DNA from: an uncultured Solibacteraceae bacterium
Lineage (GTDB): Bacteria > Acidobacteriota > Terriglobia > 20CM-2-55-15
Length of the DNA stretch: 64,000 bases
Reading direction: 5' to 3'
Assembly (NCBI GenBank): GCA_964584785.1
Contig: CAZPBY010000011.1
Location: forward strand, 65,877 to 129,876
Shown here piece by piece: positions 2,264-23,066 of the stretch. Each line of letters starts with the position of its first letter. The stretch's first letter is position 1. The translations under genes were made by a program, and so were the position numbers. The notes below the pieces were generated by a model. The model saw nothing but the letters and a program-made list of their open reading frames with translations, was not told the origin of the DNA and did not search any database.

Positions 2264-4045
2264 TTAACGGAACAAAGCGGCCTTCAGGACCGTGTAGGCA
2301 ACATTGTTGTTGAGCACCATATTGATGGTGGTGCCGCTGCTCATTTGCAGTTTGTCGCTGATGATGGCGCCGATCACATAGCTCGTCGAACCGGAGCCGC
2401 CCTTGAATTGCACCTGGTCGCCGTAAGCGCTGGATGAGCACGTCGTGTTTGCGCCGGGATCCGCGGAGCCGTCTGCTCCCGCGGTGCATTGATGAATGTA
2501 CATGGCGCCCGCCATGGAGAACTTCGAGCCGCCCGCCAGGACTGGTGTCGCTGCCTGGGCACGGTTCTGGAAAAAGAGAATTCCACGTTGTCTGCCATTC
2601 GGGTTTTTGGTGAGATCGTCTGCGTCCGGATTAGGGTCTCCATAATCGCCCGAACATGGAGCGAGCAGAACACTGCCGGAAATCGTCGTAGGGATGAAGG
2701 TTGGCAATGTCGCACCGGGGCACTTGGAATTGGATGTATCGAAGTTTGTAATGGTACGGTTACCAGGATTGCAATCTCCGCCACTTCCCTGAGCTGAAAA
2801 GGTGTCGTGTTTGCCGTCAGTGTCTGCCATATAGAATATCGTTCCACCGGTACCATCACCTGTATCGGTTGAGGGACGAGCACATCCGGCCGACTTGAGG
2901 GTGAATCCGCCCTTCGAAAGGTAGTAGACGCCCGGCTTGAAGATGATGGTCTTGTCTACCGTGATTCCATTTGTGTAGATGCCGGCGGAGTACTCGTCGC
3001 AGCCGTTAGGGTCCGGACATCCATGGTCGTTCACGTTGTGGGAGACTGTCGGATTGGTGGTCAGTCCCGTGGTGGGCGGAGCCGCGAAGGAGGAAAAGGG
3101 GTCCGAGGCAGGCGTCCCCGGAGAAACCCACTTTGGAGTGCGAGGACTCGTACAAGAAGTCGGCGCATTGGTTGTTGAACACCCCGTTGTGGTGCTGTTC
3201 GGACAGAAGGTGCCACCCCACGCCGACGATGTTGTGGGGCCTCCAAACACCAGAAGCTGTCCACCGCAATAGTCGGGTCCTCCATAGACAAGATTGATCG
3301 TTCCGGTTCCCGTCACTGCGGTTGTACTGCTGGAGTTGATTGCCAGCGTCAGTTCTGCGCCACCCATGATGGTAATAGTGCCATTGTTGTCCAGACTCGA
3401 GCCGGTTGGTGCGAGAAGTCCGATGGGAGCTGCTGATGCTACGTTGACGATGCCGCAAAGTGAAGCCGCCTTGACGTCCGTCGTGTTCGAACTGGAAAGC
3501 AGGCCCAAGAAAAAATTATGAACGCGATCCACCACATCGACACGCATGAGGGAGTTCGACACGGTACTCGATGGAGTAATTCCGGGAACGGGACATGCCG
3601 CACCGGCCGGACATGCGCTCTTGTCCGGGAAACTCACGTACACGTTGATCCCTGCGGTAGTTCCTGTGGAGGTCGCTTGTGCGCGCGTCAAGGTGCTCGA
3701 GTAGCTGTTCTCAGTCGCATACCAGCAGGGTTGAGCCGTGGTGGTGGTATAGCAATCGAAAGCCGTGCCTGACGTAAAATTAGGGTTGAGACCACCTGTA
3801 CCGGTGGGTGCGTGGTTGGCCACGGCCAGCATGTCCATTGCACCGGCGACACAAACGGCGTCGGCGACGTTTTGAGCTGTCTGTCGATGAAACCACAGGT
3901 AGGAATAGTCGACGGCCAAAGCCGCGGCTATGAGAACAAAAAGAGCGAGGCACACCATAACAAGGATGATGGCCTGACCGCTCTCTCGTGGCCGCTCCGT
4001 GCATAGTGTTCCTCTTGTAGTGATGGTTTCCGCCATCGTTAACAT
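2264..4045 (-). CDS. tadG: TadG-like Tad pilus pseudopilin / pilus-assembly protein, unusually large (593 aa), Ser/Thr/Gly/Cys-rich
   Basis: The N-terminus (RESGQAIILVMVCLALFVLIAAALAVDYSYLW) is the TadE/TadG-type hydrophobic segment. The remainder is low-complexity and T/S/G-rich with multiple Cys. It sits immediately downstream of two tadE-like genes. Confidence 0.6.
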   Translation of the reverse strand: MLTMAETITTRGTLCTERPRESGQAIILVMVCLALFVLIAAALAVDYSYLWFHRQTAQNVADAVCVAGAMDMLAVANHAPTGTGGLNPNFTSGTAFDCYTTTTAQPCWYATENSYSSTLTRAQATSTGTTAGINVYVSFPDKSACPAGAACPVPGITPSSTVSNSLMRVDVVDRVHNFFLGLLSSSNTTDVKAASLCGIVNVASAAPIGLLAPTGSSLDNNGTITIMGGAELTLAINSSSTTAVTGTGTINLVYGGPDYCGGQLLVFGGPTTSSAWGGTFCPNSTTTGCSTTNAPTSCTSPRTPKWVSPGTPASDPFSSFAAPPTTGLTTNPTVSHNVNDHGCPDPNGCDEYSAGIYTNGITVDKTIIFKPGVYYLSKGGFTLKSAGCARPSTDTGDGTGGTIFYMADTDGKHDTFSAQGSGGDCNPGNRTITNFDTSNSKCPGATLPTFIPTTISGSVLLAPCSGDYGDPNPDADDLTKNPNGRQRGILFFQNRAQAATPVLAGGSKFSMAGAMYIHQCTAGADGSADPGANTTCSSSAYGDQVQFKGGSGSTSYVIGAIISDKLQMSSGTTINMVLNNNVAYTVLKAALFR

Positions 4046-4081
4046 ACTCGCTTCCTTGCTAGTTTGTTTGGCTCTACAGCC

Positions 4082-4540
4082 TCAATACACAATGCGGCCC
4101 TGAGCCGCAGCTTTAACGGTTCCCGGACTACCTCCAAGCGTGAAGATCGATACAAATGGATACGTCAGCTCGACGCGCACCCGGTTTGGTGCTTTATTGT
4201 TGCCGTCGAGGTAGCAGATGGAAACCGTCATGCCGGAGTAATTGGCGTAACCGCGGATAACGGAGTCGACTGCAGTGATATTCGTCGCACAGTCGGAACT
4301 TGAACCGGACGCCGGACCGCTTGAAGCGTCGAGCGAAGATGATTTCGTGTTGTAACCGTGCGCGACAGCGTATCGCACGCCTTCCTTGGCCGCGACAGAC
4401 ATGACGACGTAGGTGTACATCAAGAGCACATACTGCAGTGCGGCAAAGATAAAAGTCATGAGCAGGATGGCGGACACCATGAAGTCCACAGTTGCCTGTC
4501 CCCGCTCCGGTGATGTCTTGTTGTGCCTGACGTTTCGCAT
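4082..4540 (-). CDS. tadE: TadE-like pseudopilin (Flp pilus assembly)
   Basis: Start refined to the internal Met (MRNVRHNKTSPERGQATVDFMVSAILLMTFIFAALQY…). This avoids a 61-bp overlap with the upstream gene. ERGQATVxF plus a hydrophobic helix is the TadE-like N-terminal motif. Confidence 0.6.
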   Translation of the reverse strand: MRNVRHNKTSPERGQATVDFMVSAILLMTFIFAALQYVLLMYTYVVMSVAAKEGVRYAVAHGYNTKSSSLDASSGPASGSSSDCATNITAVDSVIRGYANYSGMTVSICYLDGNNKAPNRVRVELTYPFVSIFTLGGSPGTVKAAAQGRIVY

Positions 4541-4557
4541 CCTTGCTACATCCGCTT

Positions 4558-5175
4558 TCAGTTCATCGATCGCATGGAAAGCTGCCGATGAAAGGTACAA
4601 CTGCCCCCGCTGGTGCAAATCGAAACCGGCATCGTCGCCAGGTTAAAGGGGGAGCCGGTGATGATCGGCGAAAAAGTGTAGGTCACATCAACGCGACTTA
4701 GGACGAAATAGGGCGATTCGGGATCGCTGGACGGCAGTGGACTTCCACCGGACGTGTTGGATCCGCAGGTCGACTGATTCGTACAGGTGACGCAGTTTGA
4801 GCGCGTCACGCCACTGGACGTGTAGATGCCGCTGCCGCTAACCAGAACGGCGCTGCTGCAAACCTGAACCTGTGCGCTGGCGTAAGAACCCAGGGCTCCA
4901 TACATGTCCTGGTAAGCCAACGACGTGACGGTACTGCTCGTGGAAGTGGCAGGCGTTGCGGAAGGCAGGCCGCTGGCCTCCCCGGCCGGCGTCGAAAATC
5001 CCAGAATTCCATACTCGAGTGCCGTGCGCGGTGCCGTCGCGATGTTAAGCGCAACAAGAACAAAAAAGCTGAAATTGATGATGTTGAAGATGACGGTCAG
5101 GAGGACGGGCAGAACCAACGCGGTTTCAACGAGGGCCTGGCCTGAATTGCTTTTGAAAATCCGTTTCACTGCCAT
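4558..5175 (-). CDS. tadE: TadE-like pseudopilin (Flp pilus assembly)
   Basis: The N-terminus (SNSGQALVETALVLPVLLTVIFNII) is the canonical TadE/TadF motif. First gene of the minus-strand pseudopilin operon. Confidence 0.65.
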   Translation of the reverse strand: MAVKRIFKSNSGQALVETALVLPVLLTVIFNIINFSFFVLVALNIATAPRTALEYGILGFSTPAGEASGLPSATPATSTSSTVTSLAYQDMYGALGSYASAQVQVCSSAVLVSGSGIYTSSGVTRSNCVTCTNQSTCGSNTSGGSPLPSSDPESPYFVLSRVDVTYTFSPIITGSPFNLATMPVSICTSGGSCTFHRQLSMRSMN

Positions 5176-5344
5176 CGGTTCATCCTAAACCTAAGGGCTA
5201 ATTTTTAACGCGGGGTCCTCGGAGATGCAAGGGCATTCTCGAACTTCCGCGGGTATGCGTTCAACCGCATGACGTCATCAGGGTATTTGACGATGGGCCG
5301 CCCTTGCCAAAACCATGCCTGTAGTGTAACCAGACAAAGCATTC

Positions 5345-6862
5345 TTGCAGCGAGGGAAGTCTTTGACTGAAACGGCAACACTCTTATCGAACTCAACCTT
5401 TGTATCTCGTCCGGCCCGCTGGCTCCGGCTTGTATTCTCTTTTCCGGCGATGCTGGCGGTAATGCTCGGTTGCAACATCTTTATCCTTGCCCGAGGCACA
5501 ATTACCGATCCGGACATCTGGTGGCACAACCGCAACGTCGAATATCTCTTTCAGACGCATCACTTCCCAAACCAGGATGCCTATTCCTTCACCGTTGCCG
5601 GGAAGGATTGGATGAACTATGAGTGGCTTGCCGAAATACCGTTTTACGGCGCGTGGAAAGCCGCAGGACCTGTAGGGATCGAAGTTTTGATGATCATACT
5701 GGTCGAGGTGATTTTCCTCGAACTGCTTTACCTCTGCTACCGCGTGAGCGGTAACATCAAAGCGTCGTTGCTCTCCTGCGCTTTTTGCAGCTACCTGGCG
5801 GTAGTCAATTTCGGTCCGCGCACGATACTGTTTGGCTACGCATTCCTGGTTCTGCTGCTGATCATCCTCGAACGGTTTCGCTCCGGAAAGACCGGTTGCA
5901 TCTGGCTGCTGCCGCCTCTTTTCGCTGTCTGGTCCAACACGCACGGTTCCTGGCTGCTCGGGCTGATCGTGTTCGGTATCGTCGTCGCGGCGGGTTTTGT
6001 TGAGGGGCAATGGGGACGCGTCGAGTCCACGCGTTGGAGCGTCCGCGACATGATCCGCCTGGCCGGCGCCTGGCTGGCAAGCGCTGCCGCTCTTCTGCTG
6101 AATCCGTTCGGCTGGCGAATGGTGGTTTATCCCTTTGAATTTGCCTCGAAGCAGACGCTGAACGTGTCGCATGTCATTGAATGGGCTTCGGTCGACTTCC
6201 ACGATGTCCGCGGCAAGGTGGTCCTGGGTCTGCTGATCGGAATTATTCTCCTGGCGCTGTTTCGCAATCGAAAGTGGGCGCTGGCGGAACTCGGGTTACT
6301 CCTGTTCGGACTCTACTCCGGATTAACCTATGTGCGCTTTCTGTTCTTTCTTGCAGTCCTTATAGCTCCGCTTCTGGCCAAGTTGCTGGACTTCATTCCT
6401 CCGTATCAGCCGGAAATCGACAAGCCGGCGCTGAACGCCGTCTTCATGATTGGCGCGATTGTCGCTATTGCGACTCAGTTCCCCGTGCATTCGGCAACGG
6501 CTCATCAGGCCGACGCAGCCACACAGTTCCCCGCCGGGGCCCTTCCGTATTTTGGGGACCATCCGCTGGAGGGCAATCTTCTGAACTATTACAACTGGGG
6601 CGGCTATCTCGGTTGGCACAATCGTGACCTGAAGGTGTTTATCGACAGCCGTGTCGACATATTCGAGTATGCGGGCGTCCTTCGCGACTACCTGGACATT
6701 GCGGAGCTTCGTGAACCCGATAAGCTGCTGGACAAGTATCAGGTCCGTTATGTGCTGTTCCCGCCATCACACCACTTGACTTACGTTCTGGAGCACGATC
6801 CTCGCTGGAAAGTGAACTATCGCGACTCGGTTAGTGTTCTTTTCGAGCGCAAGTCATCGTGA
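5345..6862 (+). CDS. Polytopic membrane protein, probable GT-C-fold glycosyltransferase/polymerase-like; unassigned family, paralog of 8564..10072
   Basis: About 10 TM helices followed by a roughly 120-aa soluble C-terminal domain. The N-terminal loop motif DPDIWWHNRN…YSFTVAGKDWMNYEWLAEI is conserved with the paralog (DTDLWWHLRN…YSFTAAGAAWVDHSWLSEL). The C-terminal blocks (DSRVDIFEYAGVLRDY / DTRTDIFEYNGVLADY) are also conserved. Confidence 0.55.
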   Translation: MQRGKSLTETATLLSNSTFVSRPARWLRLVFSFPAMLAVMLGCNIFILARGTITDPDIWWHNRNVEYLFQTHHFPNQDAYSFTVAGKDWMNYEWLAEIPFYGAWKAAGPVGIEVLMIILVEVIFLELLYLCYRVSGNIKASLLSCAFCSYLAVVNFGPRTILFGYAFLVLLLIILERFRSGKTGCIWLLPPLFAVWSNTHGSWLLGLIVFGIVVAAGFVEGQWGRVESTRWSVRDMIRLAGAWLASAAALLLNPFGWRMVVYPFEFASKQTLNVSHVIEWASVDFHDVRGKVVLGLLIGIILLALFRNRKWALAELGLLLFGLYSGLTYVRFLFFLAVLIAPLLAKLLDFIPPYQPEIDKPALNAVFMIGAIVAIATQFPVHSATAHQADAATQFPAGALPYFGDHPLEGNLLNYYNWGGYLGWHNRDLKVFIDSRVDIFEYAGVLRDYLDIAELREPDKLLDKYQVRYVLFPPSHHLTYVLEHDPRWKVNYRDSVSVLFERKSS

Positions 6863-6892
6863 AGATTCCAAAGTAATGGTGACAATACACCT

Positions 6893-8581
6893 GTGAATGG
6901 GTCGTTTTTAGCGATGGAGGTGTGTCTGGCTGCTTTGGCGGTCGGCGCCGCTTACATTGCTCCCGGATGGCTCGCGAGTGGGTATCGAAGACTGGACAGT
7001 GTGTTGACTCGCGCATCGCGCCGTCCAGGTGTGGCAGTCCTGGCAATCGGCGCGCTGGCACTCGTCGCCCGGGCGGCGGTGCTGCCGGTGCTGCCGGTTC
7101 CTCAACCGAGAATTCAGGACGAATTCAGCTATCTTCTCGCTGCCGACACTTTTGCCCACGGCCGGATGACGAACCCTGCGCATCCGATGTGGGTTCACTT
7201 CGAAAGCTTCCACATCATCCACAACCCGACCTATGCCTCCATGTACTACCCCGGGTTGGGGCTCATGCTCGCTGCAGGCGAGGTCGTATTCGGCCATCCA
7301 TTCGTCGGCGTGTGGCTGAGTCTGGGATTCATGTGCGCCGCAATTTGTTGGATGCTTCAGGGCTGGCTGCCCGGAAAGTGGGCCGTCCTGGGCGGCTGTA
7401 TCGCCATTGTCCGCGTCGCGATGTTCAGCTACTGGGCGGACAGCTACTTCGGCGGGACACTACCCGCGATCGGTGGTGCGCTGGTTCTTGGAGCTTTGCC
7501 GCGCATTCAACGGCGGCGGCAGGTCCGGCATTCACTTGTGATGGCCGCAGGTCTGGCGATACTTGCGAACACCCGGCCCTGGGAAGGGCTGTTCTTTGGC
7601 ATACCTGTGGCGGCCGTGATAATAGGTTGGATGCTGCAAAAGAACGCTCCGTCCGTGCGAGTATGCATTCGCAGGATCATTCTGCCGATCTCGCTGGCGC
7701 TGGTATTGATCGTTTCCGCCATGGGTTATTACTTCTGGCGCGTCACCGGTAGTCCCTTTCGCATTCCTTACCAGGTCAACATACAGACCTACGGTTTGAT
7801 GTATTTTCCGTGGCAGGAACTGAAGCCGTTGCCTGAGTATCACCATGCGGTGATGCGCGACTTTTACGAAAAATACAGCCTGGACCCGTACCTGAAGGCG
7901 AATTCAAACCCGTCCGACAGGGTGATTGGCACTCTGGCCGGGTTCTGGTTGTTCTATTTCGGGCCGGTTCTCACACTTCCTTTCCTGGTATGGACGGTGA
8001 CCAGGCCTGCCGGCGTGGGGAGGTTTGCCAGCCGGAAAACGCGCTTTTTCGCGGCCGTGTGCCTTGTCACGCTTGTCGGAATCATGCTGCCCATCTACGG
8101 AGCGCAGCCGCACTATGGCGGAGCGTTACTGAGCGCCTTCTATGCACTGCTCTTACAGGCGATGCGGCACACGCGCTTCTGGCGATGGGAAGGGAAACGC
8201 GCTGGAGAAGTCATCATTGCGTCAGTGCTGTGTATCTGCGCCGCGCTTGTTGTCGTGCGTGTTGCGACTCCCTTGCCGTGCGGCAAACTCCGGACCTGGT
8301 GTTCCGAACCCTTCGGCAACACCGATCGGGCAAGGGTATTGGCCGAATTGTCCGCTTATGAGGGAGGGCAGCTGGCTATAGTCCGATATGGACCGAATCA
8401 TGACTCCGTATTCAATGAATGGGTCTACAACGATGCGGGGATCGACCAATCAAAAGTCGTTTGGGCCCGGGAAATGTCACCCGCTGAAGATCGCGAGTTG
8501 ATCCATTACTTCAAAGACCGCCAGGTGTGGCTGGTCGAAGCGGACGAAAAGCCCGCCAGAGTGTCACCTTACCTGCAATGA
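6893..8581 (+). CDS. GT39/GT83-like (PMT/ArnT-type) GT-C membrane glycosyltransferase
   Basis: A multi-TM protein with an acidic DE motif in the first extracytoplasmic loop (PQPRIQDEFSYLLAADTFAHGRMTNPAHPMW). This resembles the DE…HPP loop of PMT_2/ArnT enzymes. Long hydrophobic body. Confidence 0.5.
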   Translation: MNGSFLAMEVCLAALAVGAAYIAPGWLASGYRRLDSVLTRASRRPGVAVLAIGALALVARAAVLPVLPVPQPRIQDEFSYLLAADTFAHGRMTNPAHPMWVHFESFHIIHNPTYASMYYPGLGLMLAAGEVVFGHPFVGVWLSLGFMCAAICWMLQGWLPGKWAVLGGCIAIVRVAMFSYWADSYFGGTLPAIGGALVLGALPRIQRRRQVRHSLVMAAGLAILANTRPWEGLFFGIPVAAVIIGWMLQKNAPSVRVCIRRIILPISLALVLIVSAMGYYFWRVTGSPFRIPYQVNIQTYGLMYFPWQELKPLPEYHHAVMRDFYEKYSLDPYLKANSNPSDRVIGTLAGFWLFYFGPVLTLPFLVWTVTRPAGVGRFASRKTRFFAAVCLVTLVGIMLPIYGAQPHYGGALLSAFYALLLQAMRHTRFWRWEGKRAGEVIIASVLCICAALVVVRVATPLPCGKLRTWCSEPFGNTDRARVLAELSAYEGGQLAIVRYGPNHDSVFNEWVYNDAGIDQSKVVWAREMSPAEDRELIHYFKDRQVWLVEADEKPARVSPYLQ

Positions 8582-10072
8582 ATCTTCGTGCCGGCGCTTG
8601 TAGATGACCGCCTGATGGTCTGAGTAAGCGCGCTCCCACCGGGAAGACTTCGACAGATAGTAGGCCAGAGGTGTGCCTGCCGGATAGATCACATACCCGA
8701 TACTGTACTTATCGAGCAGGTCATCCGTGTTCTGAAACGTCGAGATTGAAAAGTAATCGGCCAATACTCCGTTGTACTCGAAAATGTCCGTCCGCGTGTC
8801 GATGAACGTGGGGATTTCGGGAGCGAACCATTCGACGTATCCTCCCCATTCGTACTGGTTGAATATGTTTCCTGCGCCGTGATTGGCTTTCAGGTAATTC
8901 GTCGCGGATGCCGGAAAGAACGCGTTCACCTGGGCGGTGAGAGTTTGCTCCGCCGGAAAAGCCAGTACCATCGCCAGCGCGATGATGCCGAGGATCGAGG
9001 CGTTGACGATCCTTCGCTCGTTCGAAGGATCGTAGGAACTCAAGCGAGGAAGATGGCGCACCAGAAGCGGCGGCAGGACAATCCCGGTCATCACCAGGAA
9101 ACGAATGTGGGTCAGGCCGCAAAACACCACGAACGCCGTGAGCACTGCGTCGTCGATCCGCCATCGCCCCTTCGGGAACAACGCCGCCGCGAAAACCGCC
9201 GCCAGCGTCACGAGGGCATAAGCACCGAGCCGATCATTGAAATTGATGGAAGCCCACTCGCTGCCGATCGCGACGTTGAATTTCTGGCTGAGCATCAGAT
9301 CGAAGGGATACCGTACGAGCCGCCATCCATACGGATTGACAAAGAGTGCGGCAATCGAGGCCGCAAACACGCTCAGCATCCGTCGGATTTCGGCGGAGGT
9401 CCAGGGCGACGAAGTGAGGCGTCCTTCATACCTCGGGATCAACCCGGAGCCGAAGATCAGTCCGAATATCACCATTCCCATCGGCCAACCACCATGCAAA
9501 TTGATCCACAACGTGAACAGCGGTGGTATCAGCCACAGCGGGGCGTTTCTCGTATCCCTGAACCGCAGCAGGATTGCGAAGAGTGCCACAAAGCAGAGCC
9601 AGCCGAAGTTTTGGGCGCGAGGCGTAAAGCCGACCCCGGCCAGCAAGCCTCCGAACACAGCGGCGAGTCCGGCTACCAACGGGTCCGCGGCTCGTTTGAC
9701 GCACAACTGGAAGATCGCTATGCCAATCACTGCCACGCTAATAGCAAAGATCACAAATACGCCGCGCATCCCAAGGGTCTGATAGCCGGCATGGTAGATG
9801 AGTTCCGAAAGCCACGAATGGTCGACCCAGGCGGCGCCGGCGGCGGTGAAGGAATATGAATCGACGTTCGGCAGCCGGAAGTTGGAAACGATGTATCGAG
9901 CGTTGCGAAGATGCCACCACAGGTCGGTGTCGACCAGATTACCGCGGCATGTCCAGAATGCTTTGGCTGCGATGATGGCCATGAGGACCGTCGGGAAAGT
10001 GAAGAATCCGCCGTGTACTGGCCTCGTCAGCCGATCGGCTTTTGGAGTCTCCATAATAGGTCCGTGCAGCAT
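8564..10072 (-). CDS. Polytopic membrane protein, same unassigned 'DxWWH' family as 5345..6862
   Basis: Clear paralogy with 5345..6862 along its whole length. Convergent with the GT39-like gene, with 18-bp 3' overlap. Confidence 0.55.
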   Translation of the reverse strand: MLHGPIMETPKADRLTRPVHGGFFTFPTVLMAIIAAKAFWTCRGNLVDTDLWWHLRNARYIVSNFRLPNVDSYSFTAAGAAWVDHSWLSELIYHAGYQTLGMRGVFVIFAISVAVIGIAIFQLCVKRAADPLVAGLAAVFGGLLAGVGFTPRAQNFGWLCFVALFAILLRFRDTRNAPLWLIPPLFTLWINLHGGWPMGMVIFGLIFGSGLIPRYEGRLTSSPWTSAEIRRMLSVFAASIAALFVNPYGWRLVRYPFDLMLSQKFNVAIGSEWASINFNDRLGAYALVTLAAVFAAALFPKGRWRIDDAVLTAFVVFCGLTHIRFLVMTGIVLPPLLVRHLPRLSSYDPSNERRIVNASILGIIALAMVLAFPAEQTLTAQVNAFFPASATNYLKANHGAGNIFNQYEWGGYVEWFAPEIPTFIDTRTDIFEYNGVLADYFSISTFQNTDDLLDKYSIGYVIYPAGTPLAYYLSKSSRWERAYSDHQAVIYKRRHEDSLQVR

Positions 10073-10088
10073 AGTCTTTCAGTACAAA

Positions 10089-11456
10089 CTAAATCAGTTT
10101 CTTGTATCGGAATACTGCGGGAATCAAAGAATCCAGCCGTGACTGGCTGGGATACAGCTGGAATAATTCGAAACAAGTCCGAGAACCATTCGCCTCGGCG
10201 TGGACGTAGCATTCCAGCACCATCTTCTTGTGCTCCGTCACGTAATCGGCCGCACTCCAAATGCTCCGGTCTTGCGCAACCGTACTGAAGAGAAGATAGC
10301 CCAGCATCGCCGTTTTGAAGTAACTTCCATACCGAAGATCCGAAAAGACAAAGAACAGCCCGACCGGCACAAGCATCGTGTAGCTGACATATCGCGAAGA
10401 AAGAGCCTGATTGGCGCCAAATGAGGATCGGCCCAGGGTTATCAGCAAGGCGAACATCACTCCGTAGCCGACAAGAAACGTTCCTGTAAGCGCATTTCGC
10501 CGATCGCTGGAGCGAAGGCCGGCAACTCCAATCGTTCCGGCGAGCAGCGTTGCCAACACCAGCACAAAAGCAAGTGGAGTCGTTGCCGGACCCGGCGAGA
10601 ATATTCCAGCGCCTAGCGCGAAAAACCCCTTACTGATCGCCGCCATGAAATAAACAACCATGTTTGCGGAAAGCCGGGAAGCCGGGCTGACCTGGAAGTC
10701 CCGGGCAAATCCCACGAAATAAGACGCAATGATCAGTGTGTTGGCGGCGGTGAAAGCGATCCATTGAGGAGTAGCCTGTTTTTCCTCGCGGTGTTCGAAT
10801 ACCAGGAACAGCGCCGTTATGAACGGTAGCAGCAGACCATGAAGACTCGAATATGCACTCAGAAGAGAAAGGACAGTAAGAGCGACGTTTCGCCGCGTGC
10901 GCAGATTCCCTGGGCAAAGGTTCACGACGAGAAGCCACAAGACCGCGAACCACAGCGGCAAGATGAACATGAGTTGGAAGCCCCAGATGAGGTTTTCCAT
11001 CTGAAGTATGTTGAGGACCGTCAGAGGTATGACAAGGTCCAGAACAGAAATCCTTCCGGCGGTCTTGTACCTCAGCAGAACGAGACCTGCCGCGGCAGCG
11101 AAAATAAGAGTGGCTGTCACGTAGATCTCGACGGTCTGGCTCCAGTTCGTTAACCTGGCCAGCCCTTTCATCAAAAGCAAACCGACACCGATTCGATGCT
11201 CGTCATGCTGCGATAGAAGGAGTTCCTTTAGTGAGGCGTTGCCGATTAAAAGACTGCCGACATCCCACTCATCCCAGAAAGGGACATTGACCGCGTTGCT
11301 CACGACGAAGCGGAAGAAGTGGCGGCAAATGACGCAGGCGCCCAGCGCGAAGAGCACCAACTGTGCTTTAGTCGACAACAACAGGTGTGCCGGCGACCTT
11401 CTGGTGTTATGCCATTCCATTCGGCAACTCGGAGTGCAGCCGGACCTGAAAGACAA
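10089..11456 (-). CDS. Polytopic integral membrane protein, possible GT-C glycosyltransferase
   Basis: At least 10 predicted TM helices. Acidic loop motif FWDEWD near the N-terminus. No recognisable soluble domain. It lies within a cluster of GT-C genes. Confidence 0.4.
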   Translation of the reverse strand: MSFRSGCTPSCRMEWHNTRRSPAHLLLSTKAQLVLFALGACVICRHFFRFVVSNAVNVPFWDEWDVGSLLIGNASLKELLLSQHDEHRIGVGLLLMKGLARLTNWSQTVEIYVTATLIFAAAAGLVLLRYKTAGRISVLDLVIPLTVLNILQMENLIWGFQLMFILPLWFAVLWLLVVNLCPGNLRTRRNVALTVLSLLSAYSSLHGLLLPFITALFLVFEHREEKQATPQWIAFTAANTLIIASYFVGFARDFQVSPASRLSANMVVYFMAAISKGFFALGAGIFSPGPATTPLAFVLVLATLLAGTIGVAGLRSSDRRNALTGTFLVGYGVMFALLITLGRSSFGANQALSSRYVSYTMLVPVGLFFVFSDLRYGSYFKTAMLGYLLFSTVAQDRSIWSAADYVTEHKKMVLECYVHAEANGSRTCFELFQLYPSQSRLDSLIPAVFRYKKLI

Positions 11457-12654: not shown

Positions 12655-12744
12655 TCCTCGATCCGTCTCGGAATAGCGCCATCCGGCAGCCGCACGGTTG
12701 CCGGGTAATTCGCGCGGGGGCAGATGTTAATCTAAGGGCTTTTC

Positions 12745-14022: not shown

Positions 14023-14095
14023 GGGTGCCAGGTAGACGGAAGAATTCCACTTGTGCCGGCATGCCTAGTGTTTATTATCGGGCCGGGGGATTTGT

Positions 14096-14704: not shown

Positions 14705-14779
14705 CGCCTATCGCCTGAAGACCGCGTATTTCCTATTGCCAAAAGCGTGTCTCTCTGGTTGAATCACGATCGGCCAGCC

Positions 14780-14798: not shown

Positions 14799-14834
14799 AG
14801 GTTAGCGAAACATCCCAAGGAATGAGGAGAAGTT

Positions 14835-15020
14835 ATGGCTAAGATGCAGCATTTATTTAACGCCCTCCACCAGGACGAAAGCGGCCAAGGATTGGTCGAA
14901 TACGTTCTCGTCATCGCGCTCATCGCACTCGGATCGGTTGCCACAATGTCCAGCGCCGCAAGCGCAATCGCCCAGGCGTTCGACAAGCTCGACAACAAGC
15001 TGGTCAGCGCACTGCCGTAA
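14835..15020 (+). CDS. flp: Flp-family type IVb/c prepilin (Tad pilus major pilin), copy 1
   Basis: 61 aa with the canonical Flp motif ESG|QGLVEYVLVIALIALG (G↓XXXXEY prepilin peptidase site). Good RBS (aggaga) 7 nt upstream. Confidence 0.85.
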   Translation: MAKMQHLFNALHQDESGQGLVEYVLVIALIALGSVATMSSAASAIAQAFDKLDNKLVSALP

Positions 15021-15282
15021 ATCAGCACCGGTTTTTGGCAAGCCCGCATAAGCGCCTATCGCCGCACCACTATCTTTCACTCCAACAGGAGCGGGTGCGG
15101 GTTTGCTTTTCTTCATCGTGCCTCTTGTCTAGTAACCCGGCGAGGTCCGCGCGCTGCAGGTTCGTAGTGTCTTACTAGATACTGTCATACTTATCACTTA
15201 GCCACCTGGTGGACACCATAGTGAGTAACGCCCATTTCACCTGCAGCGTCTACTAACTTAAGTGTATCCACCAACTTTTTAG

Positions 15283-15311
15283 TTGACTGCTTTTCGTCAT
15301 CGCACCTATAT
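15283..15311 (+). promoter_or_regulatory. Candidate sigma70-type promoter for flp2 (TTGACT-N17-TATATT) within an AT-rich spacer
   Basis: ttgactgcttttcgtcatcgcacctatatt sits about 140 nt upstream of the flp2 start. The surrounding roughly 260 bp is markedly AT-richer than the flanks. Confidence 0.2.
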
Positions 15312-15451
15312 TGTGCCCTGCCAATAGTTCCATTGTGTAGAACCATTCGGCAATTGCCAAATGTATATGGTTCTGCTCCAATGGCGGCGGGTTCATGGCA
15401 TTGACAGCCTAATGCTGCGAATACCGACATCCCAATGATTGAGGAGAGAGT

Positions 15452-15637
15452 ATGGCCAAGATGGATCGTTTACTGAATGACCTTCACACCGATGAAAGCG
15501 GTCAGGGGTTGGTCGAGTACGTGCTCGTAATCGCGTTAATCGCATTAGGGTCCGTTGCGACAATGTCCAGCGCCGCAAGTTCAATCGCGCAAGCGTTCAA
15601 TAAGCTCAACAACAAGCTCATTAGCGCCGTTCCGTAG
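15452..15637 (+). CDS. flp: Flp-family prepilin, copy 2
   Basis: 61 aa with DESG|QGLVEYVLVIALIALGSVATMSSAAS. The mature region differs from copy 1 at 5 residues and the leader differs more. Many synonymous DNA differences. Confidence 0.85.
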   Translation: MAKMDRLLNDLHTDESGQGLVEYVLVIALIALGSVATMSSAASSIAQAFNKLNNKLISAVP

Positions 15638-15765
15638 ACTGCTCCCAGCTTCATGTGCGTTTAAGAGATCGTGCCGGTGTCGAAAGGTGCCGGCCAGATC
15701 CTTATTCTACCCACATTTCTGGAAACGGGCCTGGTGTTAACCGGGCTTCATCTATCGGAGAACGA

Positions 15766-16279
15766 CGTGATCTTTGCTTTGGCGATCGCTGTGGTAGCCG
15801 CCGTCGCAGATTTGCGTACTAAGCGGATACCCAACTGGTTGACGTACGGAGGGATTATTAGCGCTTTAGCTGGGCGTCTAGTGATGCTGGGTTGGCCTGG
15901 CCTGAAAGACGGGCTGGAAGGCATGCTTCTCGGCTCTTCCGTTTTCCTGATTCTATTTGTGCTCGGCGGAATGGGCGGCGGTGACGTCAAACTGATGGCC
16001 GCTGTCGGCGCGTTTGCGGGAACAGCCTCGATCGCGCCGCTTTTGATCGCGACTGCAGTAGCAGGTGGTGTCATGGCGGTGGTCATGATGACACTTCGCG
16101 GTCGGATACTGATAACGCTGTGGAACAGTCTTGAACTAGCGCGTCATCACATGACGGCCGGGCTGCAGCCACACCCCGTATTGAATGTGCGTGAGTCTCA
16201 TTCGATGCGATTACCATTCGCGCCGGCTATCGCCGCTGGAGTTTTGTATTGTTTGAGCCAGACATTTCCGTGGAGGTGA
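15766..16279 (+). CDS. cpaA: Prepilin peptidase CpaA/TadV (A24 peptidase family)
   Basis: …AVADLRTKRIPNWLTYGG… and the GGGDVKLMAAVGAF motif. GTG start at 15766 preceded by ggag gives a typical roughly 170-aa CpaA. The longer ORF from 15671 is less likely. Confidence 0.7.
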
Positions 16280-16282
16280 TTC

Positions 16283-17200
16283 ATGGACCTGCGCCGCATA
16301 TTAATTGCATTCGCGCTATCCGCTGTCATATCGACAGCATTAACCGTACTGCTTGCGAAGAAGTTGCGTCCGAGTAGCTCGGGCCCCGCTGTCATCCAGG
16401 TGGTTGCAGCTTCGAAGCAGCTGGCGGCCGGTGTTCCGCTTACCGCACAGGATCTGACAACTATCTCGTGGCCGTCGAACATCCCATTGAACGGATCGGT
16501 TAACAAGACTGAAGACGTGATCGGACATCCACTCCGCGTTTCCGTCGATGCGATGCAGCCTATTTTGGACCGGGATCTCGCTGCGGCTGGATCCGGGTTC
16601 GGCCTCGCGGCAAGGATTCCTGCCGGGATGCGCGCCACCGCGGTTCGATCGAACGAGATCGTCGGCGTTGCAGGCTTTCTTTTTCCTGGTTCACGAGTGG
16701 ATGTGCTGGCGACGTACGCCTTGTCGAACGGCCCTCTGGCCGGTCTTCTGGGCGGAGGTTCGCAGACGTCCACGCAAACAGTACTGCAAAATGTAGAGGT
16801 CCTTACCGCCGGTACAGCCACGGAACCGGATCCGCAAGGACGACCGCAGACAGTCAATGTCGTCACACTATTGCTTACGCCTGAGGACTCACAAAAGCTG
16901 TTGCTCGCAAGTTCTCAGGGTTCCATTCAATTTGTACTGCGCAGCGGCGTGGATCGCGACAAGTTGACGATTCCACCAACTCGGATTAGCCAGTTGACCG
17001 ACGCCAGCAACGCTCCGCTTGCGGAGCAGCTGATGAATGCCGTGACACGAGCGCCGCGAGCGCAGGCACCAGCGCCTGCTCCTGCTCCGGCCCCCGTTGT
17101 TCAGGCGCCGCCGGCACCGAAAGCGCCGGAACCGTACGTCGTTGAAGTGATACAGGGCACACAGAGATCGACTCAGAAATTTGCAGGACCTGGTCAATAG
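16283..17200 (+). CDS. cpaB: Flp pilus assembly protein CpaB/RcpC
   Basis: N-terminal TM, SAF-like region, Pro/Ala-rich C-terminus. Position between cpaA and the secretin. Confidence 0.75.
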   Translation: MDLRRILIAFALSAVISTALTVLLAKKLRPSSSGPAVIQVVAASKQLAAGVPLTAQDLTTISWPSNIPLNGSVNKTEDVIGHPLRVSVDAMQPILDRDLAAAGSGFGLAARIPAGMRATAVRSNEIVGVAGFLFPGSRVDVLATYALSNGPLAGLLGGGSQTSTQTVLQNVEVLTAGTATEPDPQGRPQTVNVVTLLLTPEDSQKLLLASSQGSIQFVLRSGVDRDKLTIPPTRISQLTDASNAPLAEQLMNAVTRAPRAQAPAPAPAPAPVVQAPPAPKAPEPYVVEVIQGTQRSTQKFAGPGQ

Positions 17201-17202
17201 CC

Positions 17203-18561
17203 ATGAGAGCAGCTACATTAATTCTCATTCTAGTGTTCCTTGCCGCGCCACTGTACAGCGCGCCACCACAGCAGACCGCCGAAGGGCAGACACTTCACGT
17301 CGTGGTGAACAAGTCGGTAGTGGTCAATGTACAGGCACCCATTCAGCGATTACTGACCAGTAATCCCGCAGTCATCGAGACCGTAGTTACGACGCCTTCA
17401 CAGATCGTCGTCTCAGGCAAGGCTGCCGGCGTCAGCAGCATGATCATCTGGGACGGCCCGGATCACTCACAGCTGCTGGATGTCGTCGTGGAACCCGACG
17501 TCTCGGCGTTCCGAGCCGCGATCGAGCGCGCCTATCCGAACCAGTCCGTCGGCGTCGAGACCAGCGACTCGCGCCTCATTCTGTCCGGCGCCGTCACTTC
17601 TCAGAGGATTATCGATGACCTTGTGAAGATGGCCGGTCTGTACTCGCCCCAGGTCGTGAACCTGTTGAACCTTGGCGACGTTCATGCCCGCCAGATGATG
17701 CTGGAGGTAAAGTTCGCGGAAGTAGACCGCACCAAGATCTCCCAGTTCGGTATCAATGTGCTGAGTACCTCGGCTGCGAACACGCCCGGAGCTTTGTCGA
17801 CGCAACAGTTCGGGGCCCCTTCTCTTCAGTCGGCAGGCATCGGAGGCGCGAGCACCCAGCGCGGCAGCGCATCGTTTAACGTTCCCGATCTCCTGAATGT
17901 CTTCCTGTTCCGGCCCGATCTCAACCTTGCGGCGACGATCAAGGACCTCGAACAGAAGGCGCTTCTGCAGATTCTCGCGGAGCCGAACCTGATGGCGTTG
18001 AACGGACAGCAGGCAAGTTTTCTTGCCGGCGGCGAATTCCCGTTCCCCGTTGTTCAATCCGGACAGAGTGCGGGAGCGGTTACCGTTCAATTCCGGCCAT
18101 TCGGTGTGAGGCTCGACTTCAAAGGAACCATCGGTGACGACAACATCATCCGTCTTCATGTCGTGCCTGAAGTCAGCGCGTTGGATTTTTCGAACTCGGT
18201 TTCCATATCGGGATTCGTCATTCCCGCTCTGTCGACGCGCAAGGCGGAGACGGAGATCGAACTGAAAGACGGACAGTCTTTCGGCATCGCCGGACTGATG
18301 GATCACCGTGCTGTGGCACAGATGAACAAGCTGCCCGGTTTGGGCGATATCCCGATTCTCGGACAGTTGTTTCGATCGAAGCTCGTCAACCGAAGCAATA
18401 CGGAGCTGGTCGTCATCGTGACGCCACGGATCGTCGATCCGGTGAAGACCACCGCAGCGCCGCAGCCACCCACAAATGCGATGCCGTTCCTGGATTCGCC
18501 TTCGTTCGACAAAGGGATTCCCGGAAACAAAAACCTGAAGACACCACGGCAACAGGATTAG
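17203..18561 (+). CDS. cpaC: Tad pilus secretin CpaC/RcpA
   Basis: Secretin C-domain (ILAEPNLMALNGQQASFLAGGEFPFPV…TELVVIVTPRIVDP). Signal peptide. Confidence 0.85.
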   Translation: MRAATLILILVFLAAPLYSAPPQQTAEGQTLHVVVNKSVVVNVQAPIQRLLTSNPAVIETVVTTPSQIVVSGKAAGVSSMIIWDGPDHSQLLDVVVEPDVSAFRAAIERAYPNQSVGVETSDSRLILSGAVTSQRIIDDLVKMAGLYSPQVVNLLNLGDVHARQMMLEVKFAEVDRTKISQFGINVLSTSAANTPGALSTQQFGAPSLQSAGIGGASTQRGSASFNVPDLLNVFLFRPDLNLAATIKDLEQKALLQILAEPNLMALNGQQASFLAGGEFPFPVVQSGQSAGAVTVQFRPFGVRLDFKGTIGDDNIIRLHVVPEVSALDFSNSVSISGFVIPALSTRKAETEIELKDGQSFGIAGLMDHRAVAQMNKLPGLGDIPILGQLFRSKLVNRSNTELVVIVTPRIVDPVKTTAAPQPPTNAMPFLDSPSFDKGIPGNKNLKTPRQQD

Positions 18562-18563
18562 TC

Positions 18564-19808
18564 ATGGCTCAAGATGCGCGCAATGATCTACGAGTCGATT
18601 CGAACGGCGACCTCCTGTCGATGGCAACGATTGCCCTCGACCGTGAGACCGAACTGCTCGTGCGGCTCTGGCTTCCTTCGCTGAAGTCGACCATCCGAGC
18701 CGCCTTCGCGGACTACGGCCCGCAGGATCATGAATCGATTCAGGAGTGGTTGGGTAACCCTTCTCTGGACATCTGCATCGTCGATTTCGATACCGATCCC
18801 GGGAAGGCTCTAGGCATTTCCGCGCTCATCCAGCACTACAGCCCAAACACCGCCATCTTCGCGGTATCCGGCGACAACACGCCCGAAGTCATTATTCAGG
18901 CGATGCGCAGCGGTTGCCGCGAATATCTGTTCAAACCGGTAGACCGGGAACAATTGACTAAAGCGGTTGCCCGCGTCGGAAGCCGGCAACGGCCCAGGCC
19001 AAAGCGCTCGAACACTCAGGTCCTGTCATTCATCGGCGCCAAGGGAGGCTGCGGAGTGACGACAGTTGCGACGCAGTTAGGTGGCTTGCTGGCCAGCTTC
19101 TGTTCAAGGAAGACAATTCTTTTGGATCTGCATCCGACTCTCGGCGATGCTGCGCTGTATCTGGGGTTCACGAGTCACAAGTACAACTCTCTCGATCTCA
19201 TCCAGAACACAGGCCGCATGGATTCGGAGCTGCTGCAGAGCCTGGTACTCCACCACCAGAGCGGCCTCGACGTAGTGCCCGCGCCGCAGGACTTCGATAG
19301 TACGCAACGAATTTCTCCGGAAGCAATGGCGAACACGTTGGCCTTCCTGCGCGATCGCTACGACTGCATCCTTGTCGACCTGCCGTCGAGGCTGAATGAC
19401 GAAACGGTTGGAGTCGTCAGTCACTCCGAATACATCTACGTGGTCACCGTCGCTGAAGTGGCGGCTCTGCGGAACGTGGCCCGGATACTGAATTATCTGG
19501 ATCACGCTCAAGTGGCTGCCGACCGAGTCCGCGTCATTCTCAACCGTTTTGAAAAACGCAGCGCCATTTCGGAGGCGCAAATCGAGAAAGTGATCGGCCG
19601 GAAAATCTTCTGGTCGGTTCCGAACGAATATCAACAAGCCGTGAAGACGATTACGGGAGGCGATCCCGCATCTCAAATCTCGCGGTCCGAACTATTGCGG
19701 AATATCAAAGGATGGGCCGAAGCGATCGGAGGGAAGCCGGCGGCCGATGATAAGGGTCCGAAAAAGAGGGGTGGACTCCTGGGAATTCTGGGAGGGGTTG
19801 AGGCCTAA
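18564..19808 (+). CDS. cpaE: CpaE/TadZ: receiver-like N-domain plus MinD/ParA-type ATPase
   Basis: Deviant Walker A (VLSFIGAKGGCGVTTVATQLG). N-terminal CheY-like fold. Confidence 0.8.
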   Translation: MAQDARNDLRVDSNGDLLSMATIALDRETELLVRLWLPSLKSTIRAAFADYGPQDHESIQEWLGNPSLDICIVDFDTDPGKALGISALIQHYSPNTAIFAVSGDNTPEVIIQAMRSGCREYLFKPVDREQLTKAVARVGSRQRPRPKRSNTQVLSFIGAKGGCGVTTVATQLGGLLASFCSRKTILLDLHPTLGDAALYLGFTSHKYNSLDLIQNTGRMDSELLQSLVLHHQSGLDVVPAPQDFDSTQRISPEAMANTLAFLRDRYDCILVDLPSRLNDETVGVVSHSEYIYVVTVAEVAALRNVARILNYLDHAQVAADRVRVILNRFEKRSAISEAQIEKVIGRKIFWSVPNEYQQAVKTITGGDPASQISRSELLRNIKGWAEAIGGKPAADDKGPKKRGGLLGILGGVEA

Positions 19809-19813
19809 CGACA

Positions 19814-21187
<1,374 letters not shown>

Positions 21188-21199
21188 AAGGAGCATGCG

Positions 21200-22153
21200 A
21201 TGATTCTTGTGATCTTTATCGTGGTGTTGGGCCTCTCGCTCGGCATCCAGCTCTTTGTTCTGAAGTCGACGAAATCCGAGAAGGCAATCGAACGTCAGCT
21301 TGCCGACATCCGGGAGACTCGGAAAGAGGGAGAGAAAACCGCCTCCATTCTCAAGGAAGAGCGGCTCAGTCCTGTTCCGTGGATGCATGACGTCCTCGCC
21401 AAGATTCCTCTCTCGTCAAGATGGGTTTACCTGATCAAGCAGGCGGGCGTGAAGTGGTTTGTATCCTCGCTCGTTATTTCCACGATCGGTCTGGCTCTCG
21501 CGGGTGCCGTGGCTGCTGCGATATTCGTGACGAATTCTTTCATTATTCTTGCCGCCGGCTTGATGGCCGGCGCAATTCCTTACGGATATCTGGCGGTGTT
21601 GCGGTATCAAAAGGTTCAAGCCTGCGGCGCTCAGTTGCCTCAAGCCGTCGAGTTGATGGCGAGGGCGCTCAAAGCAGGGCACGCTCTCAATTCCGCGCTC
21701 GAAATGGTAAGCCAGGACGTGCCGGAACCTTTGGCCACGGAGTTTCGAACCGTTCACGAGCAGCAGAACCTCGGATTGCCTTTGCGTGATGCTTTGATAA
21801 ACCTATCGCGACGGATACCGCACAACGACATGAAGTTTCTGATCACAGCGCTGCTGCTGCAGAAGGAAACCGGTGGAAACCTTGTCCAGATTCTGGAGAC
21901 GGCGTCGTTTCTGGTGCGGCAGCGCGCACGAACACGTAAGCAGATCAAGATCTATACCTCGCAGGCTCGTGCGAGTGCGTGGGTGGTAGGGTTGATGCCT
22001 TTCCTCTTATTCGTTATCTTGAGCGTGTACGACCCAAGCTACGAGATGCAGCTGCTTAATGATCCGACCGGCTCGCGTATTTTCAGCGGAAGCCTGGTCT
22101 TACTGACGATCGGTGTTGTTTTGATCCGGAAGATCGTCGCTGCGAAAGTGTGA
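21200..22153 (+). CDS. tadB: TadB inner-membrane platform protein (GspF-like)
   Basis: T2SSF-like TM topology. Position after cpaF. Confidence 0.8.
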   Translation: MILVIFIVVLGLSLGIQLFVLKSTKSEKAIERQLADIRETRKEGEKTASILKEERLSPVPWMHDVLAKIPLSSRWVYLIKQAGVKWFVSSLVISTIGLALAGAVAAAIFVTNSFIILAAGLMAGAIPYGYLAVLRYQKVQACGAQLPQAVELMARALKAGHALNSALEMVSQDVPEPLATEFRTVHEQQNLGLPLRDALINLSRRIPHNDMKFLITALLLQKETGGNLVQILETASFLVRQRARTRKQIKIYTSQARASAWVVGLMPFLLFVILSVYDPSYEMQLLNDPTGSRIFSGSLVLLTIGVVLIRKIVAAKV

Positions 22154-22157
22154 AGCC

Positions 22158-23066
22158 ATGACAACCATTTTATTTGTTGCGCTCGGCAGCTTTGTAGTTT
22201 CCATGTTGCTGTTCGTCCTTGTCCTGGGACGTCAATCGCGCCAGAGCGTCATGCTCGAGCAGATTGCGCGCCAGGCTCGAGCGGATTTCGGCGAGGTCCC
22301 CGGAGTAACGGATTGGTCCGCCTACAGGGATTGGATCGCCAGGCCGTCCGCCTTTATTCGCGGCATCGTGTCGAAAAAGCCCGATCCGGAAGTTGCCCGC
22401 CGGTTGTCGCTTGCGGGTTATCGGCAGCCGGAACATGCAGACATTTTCATCGGATCGCGGCTGGCTGTGCCCGCCTTGCTGGGATTGCTTGTCGTGATCT
22501 TTGTGTCGACGAACGTCCTGTTCTTTGTTTTTATGGCGATGCTCATCGGCTTCTTTATCCCCGATTTCTGGCTGGCGGAAGCGACCAAGCGTCGGAGAGA
22601 ACGGATCGGCGATTCATTACCGGACACGCTGGATTTGATATCCATCTGCATGGATGCCGGACTTGGCCTGGACCAGGCGATCGTTCGCGTGGGGCACGAG
22701 GTCCGCTGGTCTCAGCCCGACATCACCACCGAGCTCCTGCAGATCAATTTCGAGCAGAGCGCCGGAGTGCCGCGCATCGATTCATGGCGTGCTTTCTCGG
22801 AACGCGTCCCGCTCGATAGTCTCCGGAACCTCGTTTCCATGCTGATTCAAACTGAACGCTTCGGAACGCCGATCGCACAGGCTTTGAGCACTTTTTCCGA
22901 AACCTTACGCAGGGAGCGGACGCAGGCCGCCGAAGAAGTAGGCGCCCGCGCTGCTGTGAAGCTCGTATTTCCGATGGTAATCTTTATCTTCCCGATGATG
23001 TTTGTTGTGACCGTCGGGCCGGCTGTGCTTGGATTGATCAACAACTTTAGCAAGCTGCTCGAATAG
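22158..23066 (+). CDS. tadC: TadC inner-membrane platform protein (GspF-like)
   Basis: T2SSF-like. Paralogous to tadB. Confidence 0.8.
   Translation: MTTILFVALGSFVVSMLLFVLVLGRQSRQSVMLEQIARQARADFGEVPGVTDWSAYRDWIARPSAFIRGIVSKKPDPEVARRLSLAGYRQPEHADIFIGSRLAVPALLGLLVVIFVSTNVLFFVFMAMLIGFFIPDFWLAEATKRRRERIGDSLPDTLDLISICMDAGLGLDQAIVRVGHEVRWSQPDITTELLQINFEQSAGVPRIDSWRAFSERVPLDSLRNLVSMLIQTERFGTPIAQALSTFSETLRRERTQAAEEVGARAAVKLVFPMVIFIFPMMFVVTVGPAVLGLINNFSKLLE

Follow-up and report, generated by a model that had tools for sequence, protein, structure and literature searches.

In group IV Pseudomonas aeruginosa, the GT-C-type membrane glycosyltransferase TfpW is encoded next to pilA and arabinosylates the type IVa (T4a) pilin, O-glycosylating its Ser/Thr residues at the periplasmic face from a polyprenyl-phosphate-linked sugar (bioRxiv 10.1101/2020.04.19.049825). 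Pilin glycans have also been described in archaea, where the Epd pilins of Methanococcus are glycosylated via AglB (PMC3875500), and Epd pili form the sister group of Tad pili (PMC6668835). Flp1 of A. actinomycetemcomitans has been reported as glycosylated, with no enzyme named there (PMC6182317). Tad pili are widespread organelles of adhesion and surface sensing that have not so far been connected with any glycosylation machinery of their own. Here we describe a Tad/Flp (type IVc) locus from an uncultured Solibacteraceae bacterium, lying within a 64,000-nucleotide stretch of contig CAZPBY010000011.1 (hereafter the window), that is split by an island of six genes for polytopic membrane proteins. 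We suggest, with modest confidence, that Tad loci of this Terriglobia type carry their own periplasmic-face glycosylation module, and that the pilins or pseudopilins are its substrates.

The island (5345-14022, 8.7 kb) separates the two pilin operons of the locus and is itself made of two operons, each divergent from one of them. The operon A1-B, whose two genes are just 30 bp apart, faces tadE-tadE-tadG, and the operon GT87b-GT87a-C-A2 faces a J-domain gene and flp-flp-cpaA...tadC. GC content is even across the locus. All six open reading frames (ORFs) encode polytopic proteins by hydropathy, and five of these proteins can be assigned to GT-C: GT87a and GT87b through Pfam, A1 and B through their predicted fold, and A2 through its relationship to A1. 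The original prediction, made from the sequence alone, had described a Tad locus split by six polytopic membrane-protein genes, two of them encoding DUF2029/GT87 proteins. Pfam scans and hydropathy confirm the coordinates and the gene content, and both of the latter proteins pass PF09594 (E 3e-21 and 2e-21). The prediction had further taken the entire island to be GT-C; this stands for five proteins, two by hidden Markov model (HMM) and the A and B proteins by fold, and C is at most a putative GT-C. Its statement that nothing except membrane proteins is encoded between the pseudopilin operon and flp is accurate for 5345-14022 and overlooked a soluble J-domain gene at 14096-14704.

The position of the island inside Tad loci is strongly conserved across Terriglobia, as four independent samples show. 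A scan of a genome collection with a B profile yielded 76 distinct loci, all from Acidobacteriota metagenome-assembled genomes except one labelled Binatia, with homologues at 41-54% identity. Tad genes lie within 10 kb in 31 of the 76, many with the order tadG-tadE-tadE / A B ... GT87 / flp flp cpaA-F; by our estimate, which is not a measured value, only roughly 1% of randomly chosen genes in a multi-megabase genome would have such neighbours. Three B homologues (53-55% identity) share the layout tadG-tadE-tadE-(sigma-54 activator) / A, 154-aa protein, B, PMT_2, GT87 / flp flp cpaA.... We also drew a sample that did not depend on the island, consisting of 16 metagenomic loci found via CpaB (47-69% identity) and required to have at least 5 kb upstream of cpaB, and in 15 of them A, B or GT87 genes lie upstream of flp. 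Look-ups centred on A on long contigs placed it divergent from a sigma-54 activator-tadE-tadE operon in three cases of three, with a Tad-like pseudopilin gene in that operon in two. Among the 46 loci that have flp together with A, B or GT87 genes, the closest of these genes is a median 533 bp away from flp, and less than 1.6 kb away in 32; in nine, B immediately follows flp in the same orientation. A GT-C gene adjacent to the pilin gene, the arrangement known from TfpW, is thus present. Because the layout is seen again in dozens of related loci, it is not a product of chance. Conservation of the island in related Tad loci had been set as a check on the original prediction, and these samples bear it out.

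The homologous islands of related Tad loci (sister islands) often hold more than the window does. In an ORF clustering of all loci, with representatives scanned, they contain PMT_2 genes (34) and GT2 genes of the size of polyprenyl-phosphate-sugar synthases (57), together with PAP2 phosphatases, DegT aminotransferases and methyltransferases; one island (L162) has an epimerase/dehydratase and a GT2-methyltransferase set. By tblastn, no GT2, PMT_2, flippase-like or sigma-54 activator gene was found within the 64-kb window, and PAP2, DegT and the 154-aa bitopic protein were likewise sought there and not found. Since the additional genes of the sister islands (PMT_2, GT2, PAP2, DegT, methyltransferase, the L162 set) are all missing from these 64 kb, we infer that the island in the window is a reduced variant, for which sugar donors must come from genes elsewhere in the genome. 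It had been argued that an island with no cytoplasmic glycosyltransferases is not a polysaccharide cluster. This is true of the window, but homologous islands often have GT2, DegT, PAP2, epimerase and methyltransferase genes.

Two further features of the sister islands deserve mention. A sigma-54-dependent response regulator (REC, AAA+, HTH_8; approximately 490 aa) is encoded between tadE and A in L001-L003, L009, L019, L027, L028, L031, L034, L035 and L161-L163. A bitopic protein of approximately 154 aa with no Pfam match is encoded in 15 loci (e.g., L001 5869-6345, L002 9392-9889), always between A and B.

A1 and A2 had been put forward as an unassigned paralog pair. They are indeed paralogs, 36% identical, and a fold like that of oligosaccharyltransferases (OSTs) was not foreseen. 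The OST-like fold of A is supported by two independent structure comparisons of the predicted model, which has both the OST-type overall fold and a C-terminal periplasmic domain, and its nearest structural relatives, STT3, AglB, PglB and DPY19, all modify peptides. Residues D55, D57, W59, W60 and H61 are invariant across the family just after the first transmembrane segment (TM1). Further invariant positions are R331, G419-G420-Y421, D434-x-R436-x-D438 and E279, the last in a loop of low confidence; W418 is kept in at least 90% of members. Neither A1 nor A2 has a Pfam match even at E up to 10, including to STT3 (PF02516), or a match in NCBIfam, and searches of the PDB with the A1 sequence and the family profile gave no related chain and no OST match. 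The family comprises more than 1,400 homologues, all unnamed or hypothetical, and the few that carry an organism label are mostly from Terriglobia. A is accompanied by Tad or sigma-54 activator genes in 26 of the 32 A-bearing loci and looks much more Tad-specific than B.

B had been predicted to be PMT/ArnT-like, and this survives as a predicted fold, with neither a GT39/PMT HMM match nor a MIR domain. There is no match for B in Pfam (E up to 10), NCBIfam or the PDB sequence profiles; it fails PF13231 and PF02366 (GT83/PMT_2 and PMT), and A and C have no PF13231 match either. We considered and rejected B as a GT39 PMT: it matches neither PF02366 nor PF16192, and its model shows a small alpha/beta C-terminal domain, not MIR. 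The Asp-Glu pair is all that the two share. In the family alignment, the D76-E77 pair of the first loop is kept in at least 90% of members and D85 is invariant. With D55/D57 invariant in A and D61 kept in at least 90% of C proteins, acidic residues of the first periplasmic loop are conserved in all three families, and the conserved residues of A and B fit active enzymes. The B family has more than 6,800 homologues, again unnamed or hypothetical and mostly from Terriglobia among the few labelled by organism. The eight nearest homologues of the window's B are all Tad-linked, and 54 of 67 Tad-linked B proteins have a Tad-linked nearest relative. Profile comparison by hhalign finds weak collinear matches between the PMT_2 proteins of sister islands and both B (53% probability, E 1.3e-4, 418 columns) and A (46% probability, E 2e-4, 380 columns), which would make A and B at best distant relatives of the PMT_2 cluster. 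The same method found no relationship among the A, B and C profiles.

Both GT87 proteins carry an Asp-Phe pair just after TM1, read from the sequence as D56-F57 in GT87a and D58-F59 in GT87b; Asp58 of PimE, in the first periplasmic loop, is what we take to be its catalytic Asp. A phmmer search of the PDB with GT87b did not reach PimE. C belongs to a far larger family with no Pfam model, for which an exhaustive HMMER search recovered 16,310 representatives (clusters at 50% identity) against 14 homologues from a word index. Since most members are approximately 590 aa long, the C protein of the window (455 aa) lacks a C-terminal domain of approximately 130 aa. The family motif V-N-V-P-x-W-D-E-W follows TM1, and only its W-D-E-W portion is suggestive of GT-C. 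No Pfam (E up to 10), NCBIfam or PDB match was found for C, with a 41-sequence profile reaching neither Pfam nor the PDB, and its hhalign match to the PMT_2 cluster is weak (just 5.5%, E 0.007).

GT-C enzymes such as ArnT, PMT, OST, GT87 and TfpW act at the periplasmic face and use polyprenyl-phosphate-linked donors. If the island encodes a module that glycosylates pilus proteins, such sugars would be made by enzymes encoded elsewhere in the genome or, in many relatives, could be supplied by the island's own GT2. The island's enzymes would draw on them on the outer side of the inner membrane, where Flp (processed and unprocessed), TadE and TadG would expose Ser/Thr-containing C-terminal parts to the periplasm. 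For the step that modifies protein, the OST-like A proteins are the strongest candidates and the ArnT/PMT-like B may take part, and the GT87 enzymes, possibly with C, could extend the glycan. The pilus would then be built from subunits glycosylated before assembly. Relatives differ in how many A, B, PMT_2 and GT87 genes they have and in which combination, which would give rise to lineage-specific glycans.

The mature Flps are predicted to be 44 aa long (4460 Da for Flp1 and 4474 Da for Flp2) with six or seven Ser/Thr each, six of them in Flp1. TadE1 and TadG are rich in these residues: Ser and Thr make up 27% of TadE1, which has Ser/Thr/Pro-rich stretches, and 23% of TadG, with 30-residue windows reaching up to 53%. 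In many related loci, Flp ends in ...G/T-x-Y-I/T-T/S (e.g., GAYIT, TTYTS); the Flps of the window end in VSALP and ISAVP. The conserved C-terminal Ser/Thr of the related Flps recalls the C-terminal Ser of the P. aeruginosa 1244 pilin, which we take to be its glycan attachment site.

Several observations weigh against a pilus-glycosylating module. For one, a pilus protein is only a putative acceptor. No gene for synthesis of a sugar donor was found in the window. N-x-S/T sequons are absent from Flp1 and Flp2 and stand at chance level in TadE and TadG. A lacks the WWDYG motif, having a conserved W418-G-G-Y421 instead, and fails the STT3 HMM. C has no family assignment and is an unproven, putative GT-C at most. 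A high-resolution structure of the Caulobacter Tad pilus shows no glycan (PMC10710030), and glycosylation is thus not a general feature of Tad pili. Lastly, more than half of the sampled B homologues have no Tad gene within 10 kb and often occur with GT2, DegT and methyltransferase genes, in what resembles an arn-like module.

Canonical N-glycosylation of the pilins is not supported, given the lack of sequons in Flp, the absence of enrichment in TadE and TadG, and W-G-G-Y in place of WWDYG. Should A be an OST, canonical N-glycosylation of Flp is not what it does, since neither Flp1 nor Flp2 has an N-x-S/T sequon. A bolder proposal, which we consider doubtful, is that the A family represents an unrecognised bacterial branch of OST-like (STT3/AglB-fold) enzymes dedicated to Tad pilins or pseudopilins, that its acceptor site is non-canonical (not N-x-S/T), and that glycosylation is obligatory for the Tad pili of Terriglobia. 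An AglB-like enzyme paired with a Tad/Epd-type pilus would perhaps echo the archaeal origin of Tad systems; archaeal inheritance of A itself is pure speculation.

The alternative that survives best, which we regard as possible though on the unlikely side, is that the acceptor is not a protein at all. The GT-Cs could act on lipid A or the lipopolysaccharide (LPS) core, on another envelope glycolipid, or on a Tad-associated adhesive polysaccharide that is made or decorated in the periplasm, and be merely co-located or co-regulated with the pilus, either so that surface glycans are kept from masking a short pilus or as part of a pilus-plus-glue adhesion unit. The B family speaks for this. Since more than half of its sampled members have no nearby Tad genes and many of these lie in arn-like modules, the family is not pilus-specific and is best described as a general family of polyprenyl-phosphate-sugar transferases with a Tad-linked subset. 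Its members away from Tad loci, with neighbours as in arn-type lipid modification, fit a lipid acceptor. So does GT87, as PimE is a lipoglycan mannosyltransferase that acts on lipid-linked glycans, and so do the sister islands with PAP2 phosphatases or, as in L162, a full tool-kit of sugar-nucleotide and GT2 genes. A non-protein acceptor, however, leaves unexplained why A genes occur almost only beside the pseudopilin operon and why B directly follows flp on the same strand in nine loci, and the enzymes that A matches best in structure modify peptides. Nor does the window contain any Wzx, Wzy, ABC exporter or OPX gene. Apart from its bearing on the pilus, the B neighbourhood at loci with no Tad gene within 10 kb (L013, L016, L022, L026, L042, L047 and others), with its S-adenosylmethionine (SAM) methyltransferase, GT2 and DegT aminotransferase genes, resembles an arnB/arnC/arnT arrangement and suggests an amino-sugar modification of an envelope lipid in Terriglobia.

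Far less probable, in our estimation, is that the GT-C-like proteins, whether a few of them or all, have no catalytic activity and serve as scaffolds or chaperones in handling pilins in the membrane, in the manner of PIG-U/GAB1, the GT-C-fold subunit of the glycosylphosphatidylinositol (GPI) transamidase. The first-loop acidic residues and several Arg/His expected of an active GT-C are invariant or nearly so across the families, both GT87 proteins score far above the Pfam threshold, and relatives carry sugar-modifying genes along with GT2 genes whose size suggests a role in donor supply. The idea that unrelated genes inserted here at a recombination hot spot, with no functional tie to the pilus, has our least credence: island content does differ between genomes, and C is rare at Tad islands (one homologue, L029, among the 159 related loci compared), but throughout the family-level diversity of Terriglobia this position is taken by the same families, at 41-69% protein identity, a synteny that contradicts insertion, and GC content is uniform across the locus. 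We thus return to a glycosylation module for pilus proteins as the favored interpretation.

The features of the locus are collected in Table 1.

Table 1. Genes and intergenic regions of the Tad locus and its island, in window positions.
Feature	Position	Strand	Evidence
TonB C-terminal domain protein, 584 aa, bitopic, long Pro/Ala/Lys-rich linker; last gene of pseudopilin operon	503..2257	-	PF03544, E 2.4e-5
TadG-like pseudopilin, 593 aa	2264..4045	-	PF13400, E 4e-8
TadE-like pseudopilin 2	4082..4618	-	PF07811, E 8e-7
TadE-like pseudopilin 1	4558..5175	-	PF07811, E 5e-6
Divergent intergenic region, tadE operon vs A1-B, 169 bp	5176..5344	.	ORF map
A1, GT-C fold, OST-like (STT3/AglB/PglB-like), C-terminal periplasmic alpha/beta domain	5345..6862	+	predicted fold
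B, GT-C fold (ArnT/ALG12/PMT-like), small C-terminal domain, D76-E77 in first periplasmic loop	6893..8581	+	predicted fold
A2, paralog of A1 (36% identity), motifs intact	8564..10072	-	tblastn; alignment
C, polytopic membrane protein, 455 aa, motif VNVPFWDEWD after TM1	10089..11456	-	hydropathy
GT87a, DUF2029/PimE family GT-C	11407..12654	-	PF09594, E 3.1e-21, 76.7 bits vs cut-off 25
GT87b, 27% identical to GT87a	12745..14022	-	PF09594, E 2.2e-21, 77.2 bits vs cut-off 25
Divergent intergenic region, GT87b-GT87a-C-A2 operon vs J-domain gene and flp, 73 bp	14023..14095	.	ORF map
J-domain (DnaJ) protein, soluble, 202 aa, no TM segment	14096..14704	+	PF00226, E 3.4e-20; hydropathy
flp1, major pilin, 61 codons	14835..15020	+	PF04964, E 1e-4
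flp2, 61 codons, 84% identical to flp1	15452..15637	+	PF04964
cpaA/tadV prepilin peptidase	15671..16279	+	PF01478, E 1.5e-18
cpaB/rcpC	16283..17200	+	PF16976, E 7e-28
cpaC/rcpA secretin	17203..18561	+	PF00263, E 1e-43
cpaE/tadZ, REC and ParA-like ATPase	18564..19808	+	PF13614, PF00072
cpaF/tadA ATPase	19814..21187	+	PF00437, E 2e-55
tadB platform protein	21200..22153	+	PF00482
tadC platform protein	22158..23066	+	PF00482
DUF192 protein (COG1430)	23239..23601	+	PF02643, E 8e-15

By ORF listing and Pfam scans, the Tad locus is complete in the window (503-23601). Flp with its processing motif, an A24 prepilin peptidase, RcpC/CpaB, a secretin, TadZ/CpaE, the TadA/CpaF ATPase, TadB, TadC and TadE/TadG pseudopilins are all encoded. 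The products of cpaA, cpaB, cpaC, cpaE, cpaF, tadB and tadC each exceed the Pfam gathering score; the PF04964 matches of the two flp genes are full-length and fall under it, and the processing motif G↓QGLVEY was read from the sequence. Searches of 5176-5344 and the other intergenic regions for sigma-54 promoters, and scans for sigma-70 promoters and terminators, gave nothing above chance. The original prediction had proposed that 5176-5344 would co-regulate the pseudopilin operon and the first GT-C genes. This co-regulation is conjectural: the region yielded no consensus promoter, and the sigma-54 activator gene that relatives have at this place is missing from the window. The spacer between flp1 and flp2 is unusually long (431 bp, 15021-15451). 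Because the best sigma-70-like match of the region falls within this spacer (15283-15312), flp2-cpaA... may have a promoter of its own.

Three accessory genes of the locus and one ORF outside it are also of note. The J-domain protein, encoded directly upstream of flp1, consists of an N-terminal PF00226 domain and an uncharacterised C-terminal half; its homologues occupy the equivalent place in L068 and L087 and adjoin B in L070, and a role in pilin expression, as regulator or chaperone, is possible. The TonB C-terminal domain gene closes the tadE-tadE-tadG operon, and homologues follow tadG in L019, L027, L028, L034, L035 and L163; a TonB-like partner for Tad pseudopilins is unusual. The DUF192 gene after tadC recurs, in ORF clustering, in 25 related Tad loci and in none of the non-Tad loci sampled, and it behaves as a conserved uncharacterised component, typically the last gene of this type of Tad locus. 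Beyond the Tad locus, the downstream genes are housekeeping genes (purine synthesis, tyrS), amid which lies an ORF of 557 aa with no Pfam match (38608-40281, + strand).

If Terriglobia Tad loci do encode their own glycosylation module, a whole clade of Tad pili would be sugar-coated in a dominant soil lineage. This would bear on adhesion to soil particles, on aggregation, and on recognition by phages or predators. It would also provide a genomic context and a testable function for three large families with no Pfam model (A, B and C), and bring a family with an OST-like fold into bacterial protein glycosylation.

Each of the known systems resembles a part of this island and differs from it in other respects. 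A has the GT-C fold of STT3, AglB and PglB, and its predicted C-terminal domain resembles the one in A. fulgidus AglB-S2. Its first external loop opens with conserved acidic residues, and a flexible loop further on carries a conserved Glu (H-V-I-E-W, E279). Unlike these OSTs, A has no STT3 HMM match and W-G-G-Y rather than WWDYG, is only approximately 505 aa long, and sits beside Flps that have no N-x-S/T. The likeness of B to ArnT (GT83) and PMT_2 lies in the weak collinear profile match to the sister-island PMT_2 proteins and in the placement of B homologues outside Tad loci beside GT2 and DegT genes, as ArnT stands with ArnC and ArnB; however, B fails PF13231 and PF02366, and a Tad context is undescribed for ArnT. 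The two GT87 proteins pass the GT87 HMM and share the D-F pair just after TM1 with each other, yet the actinobacterial PimE system differs in that the host here is a diderm acidobacterium with no phosphatidylinositol mannosides or lipoarabinomannan (PIM/LAM), the genes adjoin flp, and phmmer against the PDB misses PimE. Actinobacterial Pmt/GT39 with Ppm1 is similar in concept, as a GT-C acting on Ser/Thr-rich exported proteins from a polyprenyl-phosphate sugar, and in the Asp-Glu of loop 1 in B; it differs in that B has neither a GT39 HMM match nor a MIR domain, and the window lacks a Ppm1-like gene.

By analogy, the nearest functional precedent appears to be TfpW, as found in P. aeruginosa PA7/Pa5196. 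In both cases a GT-C gene lies beside a pilin gene, and the flp-then-B order in nine related loci mirrors pilA-tfpW. TfpW, however, is a single enzyme serving a T4a pilus, whereas the Tad (T4c) loci described here carry several GT-C genes from four or five unrelated sequence families; the genes for its D-arabinofuranose (D-Araf) donor are not present here, and pilin modification has been shown for TfpW, whereas here it is putative. The original prediction held the arrangement to be undescribed, and full-text searches turned up no paper that connects Tad loci with GT-C, GT87 or DUF2029 genes, or that reports such an arrangement in Acidobacteria, although TfpW and the glycosylated Flp1 of A. actinomycetemcomitans are precedents for its parts. 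What is new is probably a pilin-locus-encoded GT-C glycosylation system for Tad pili, built from multiple enzymes of families with no existing model, on a TfpW-type principle that was already known.

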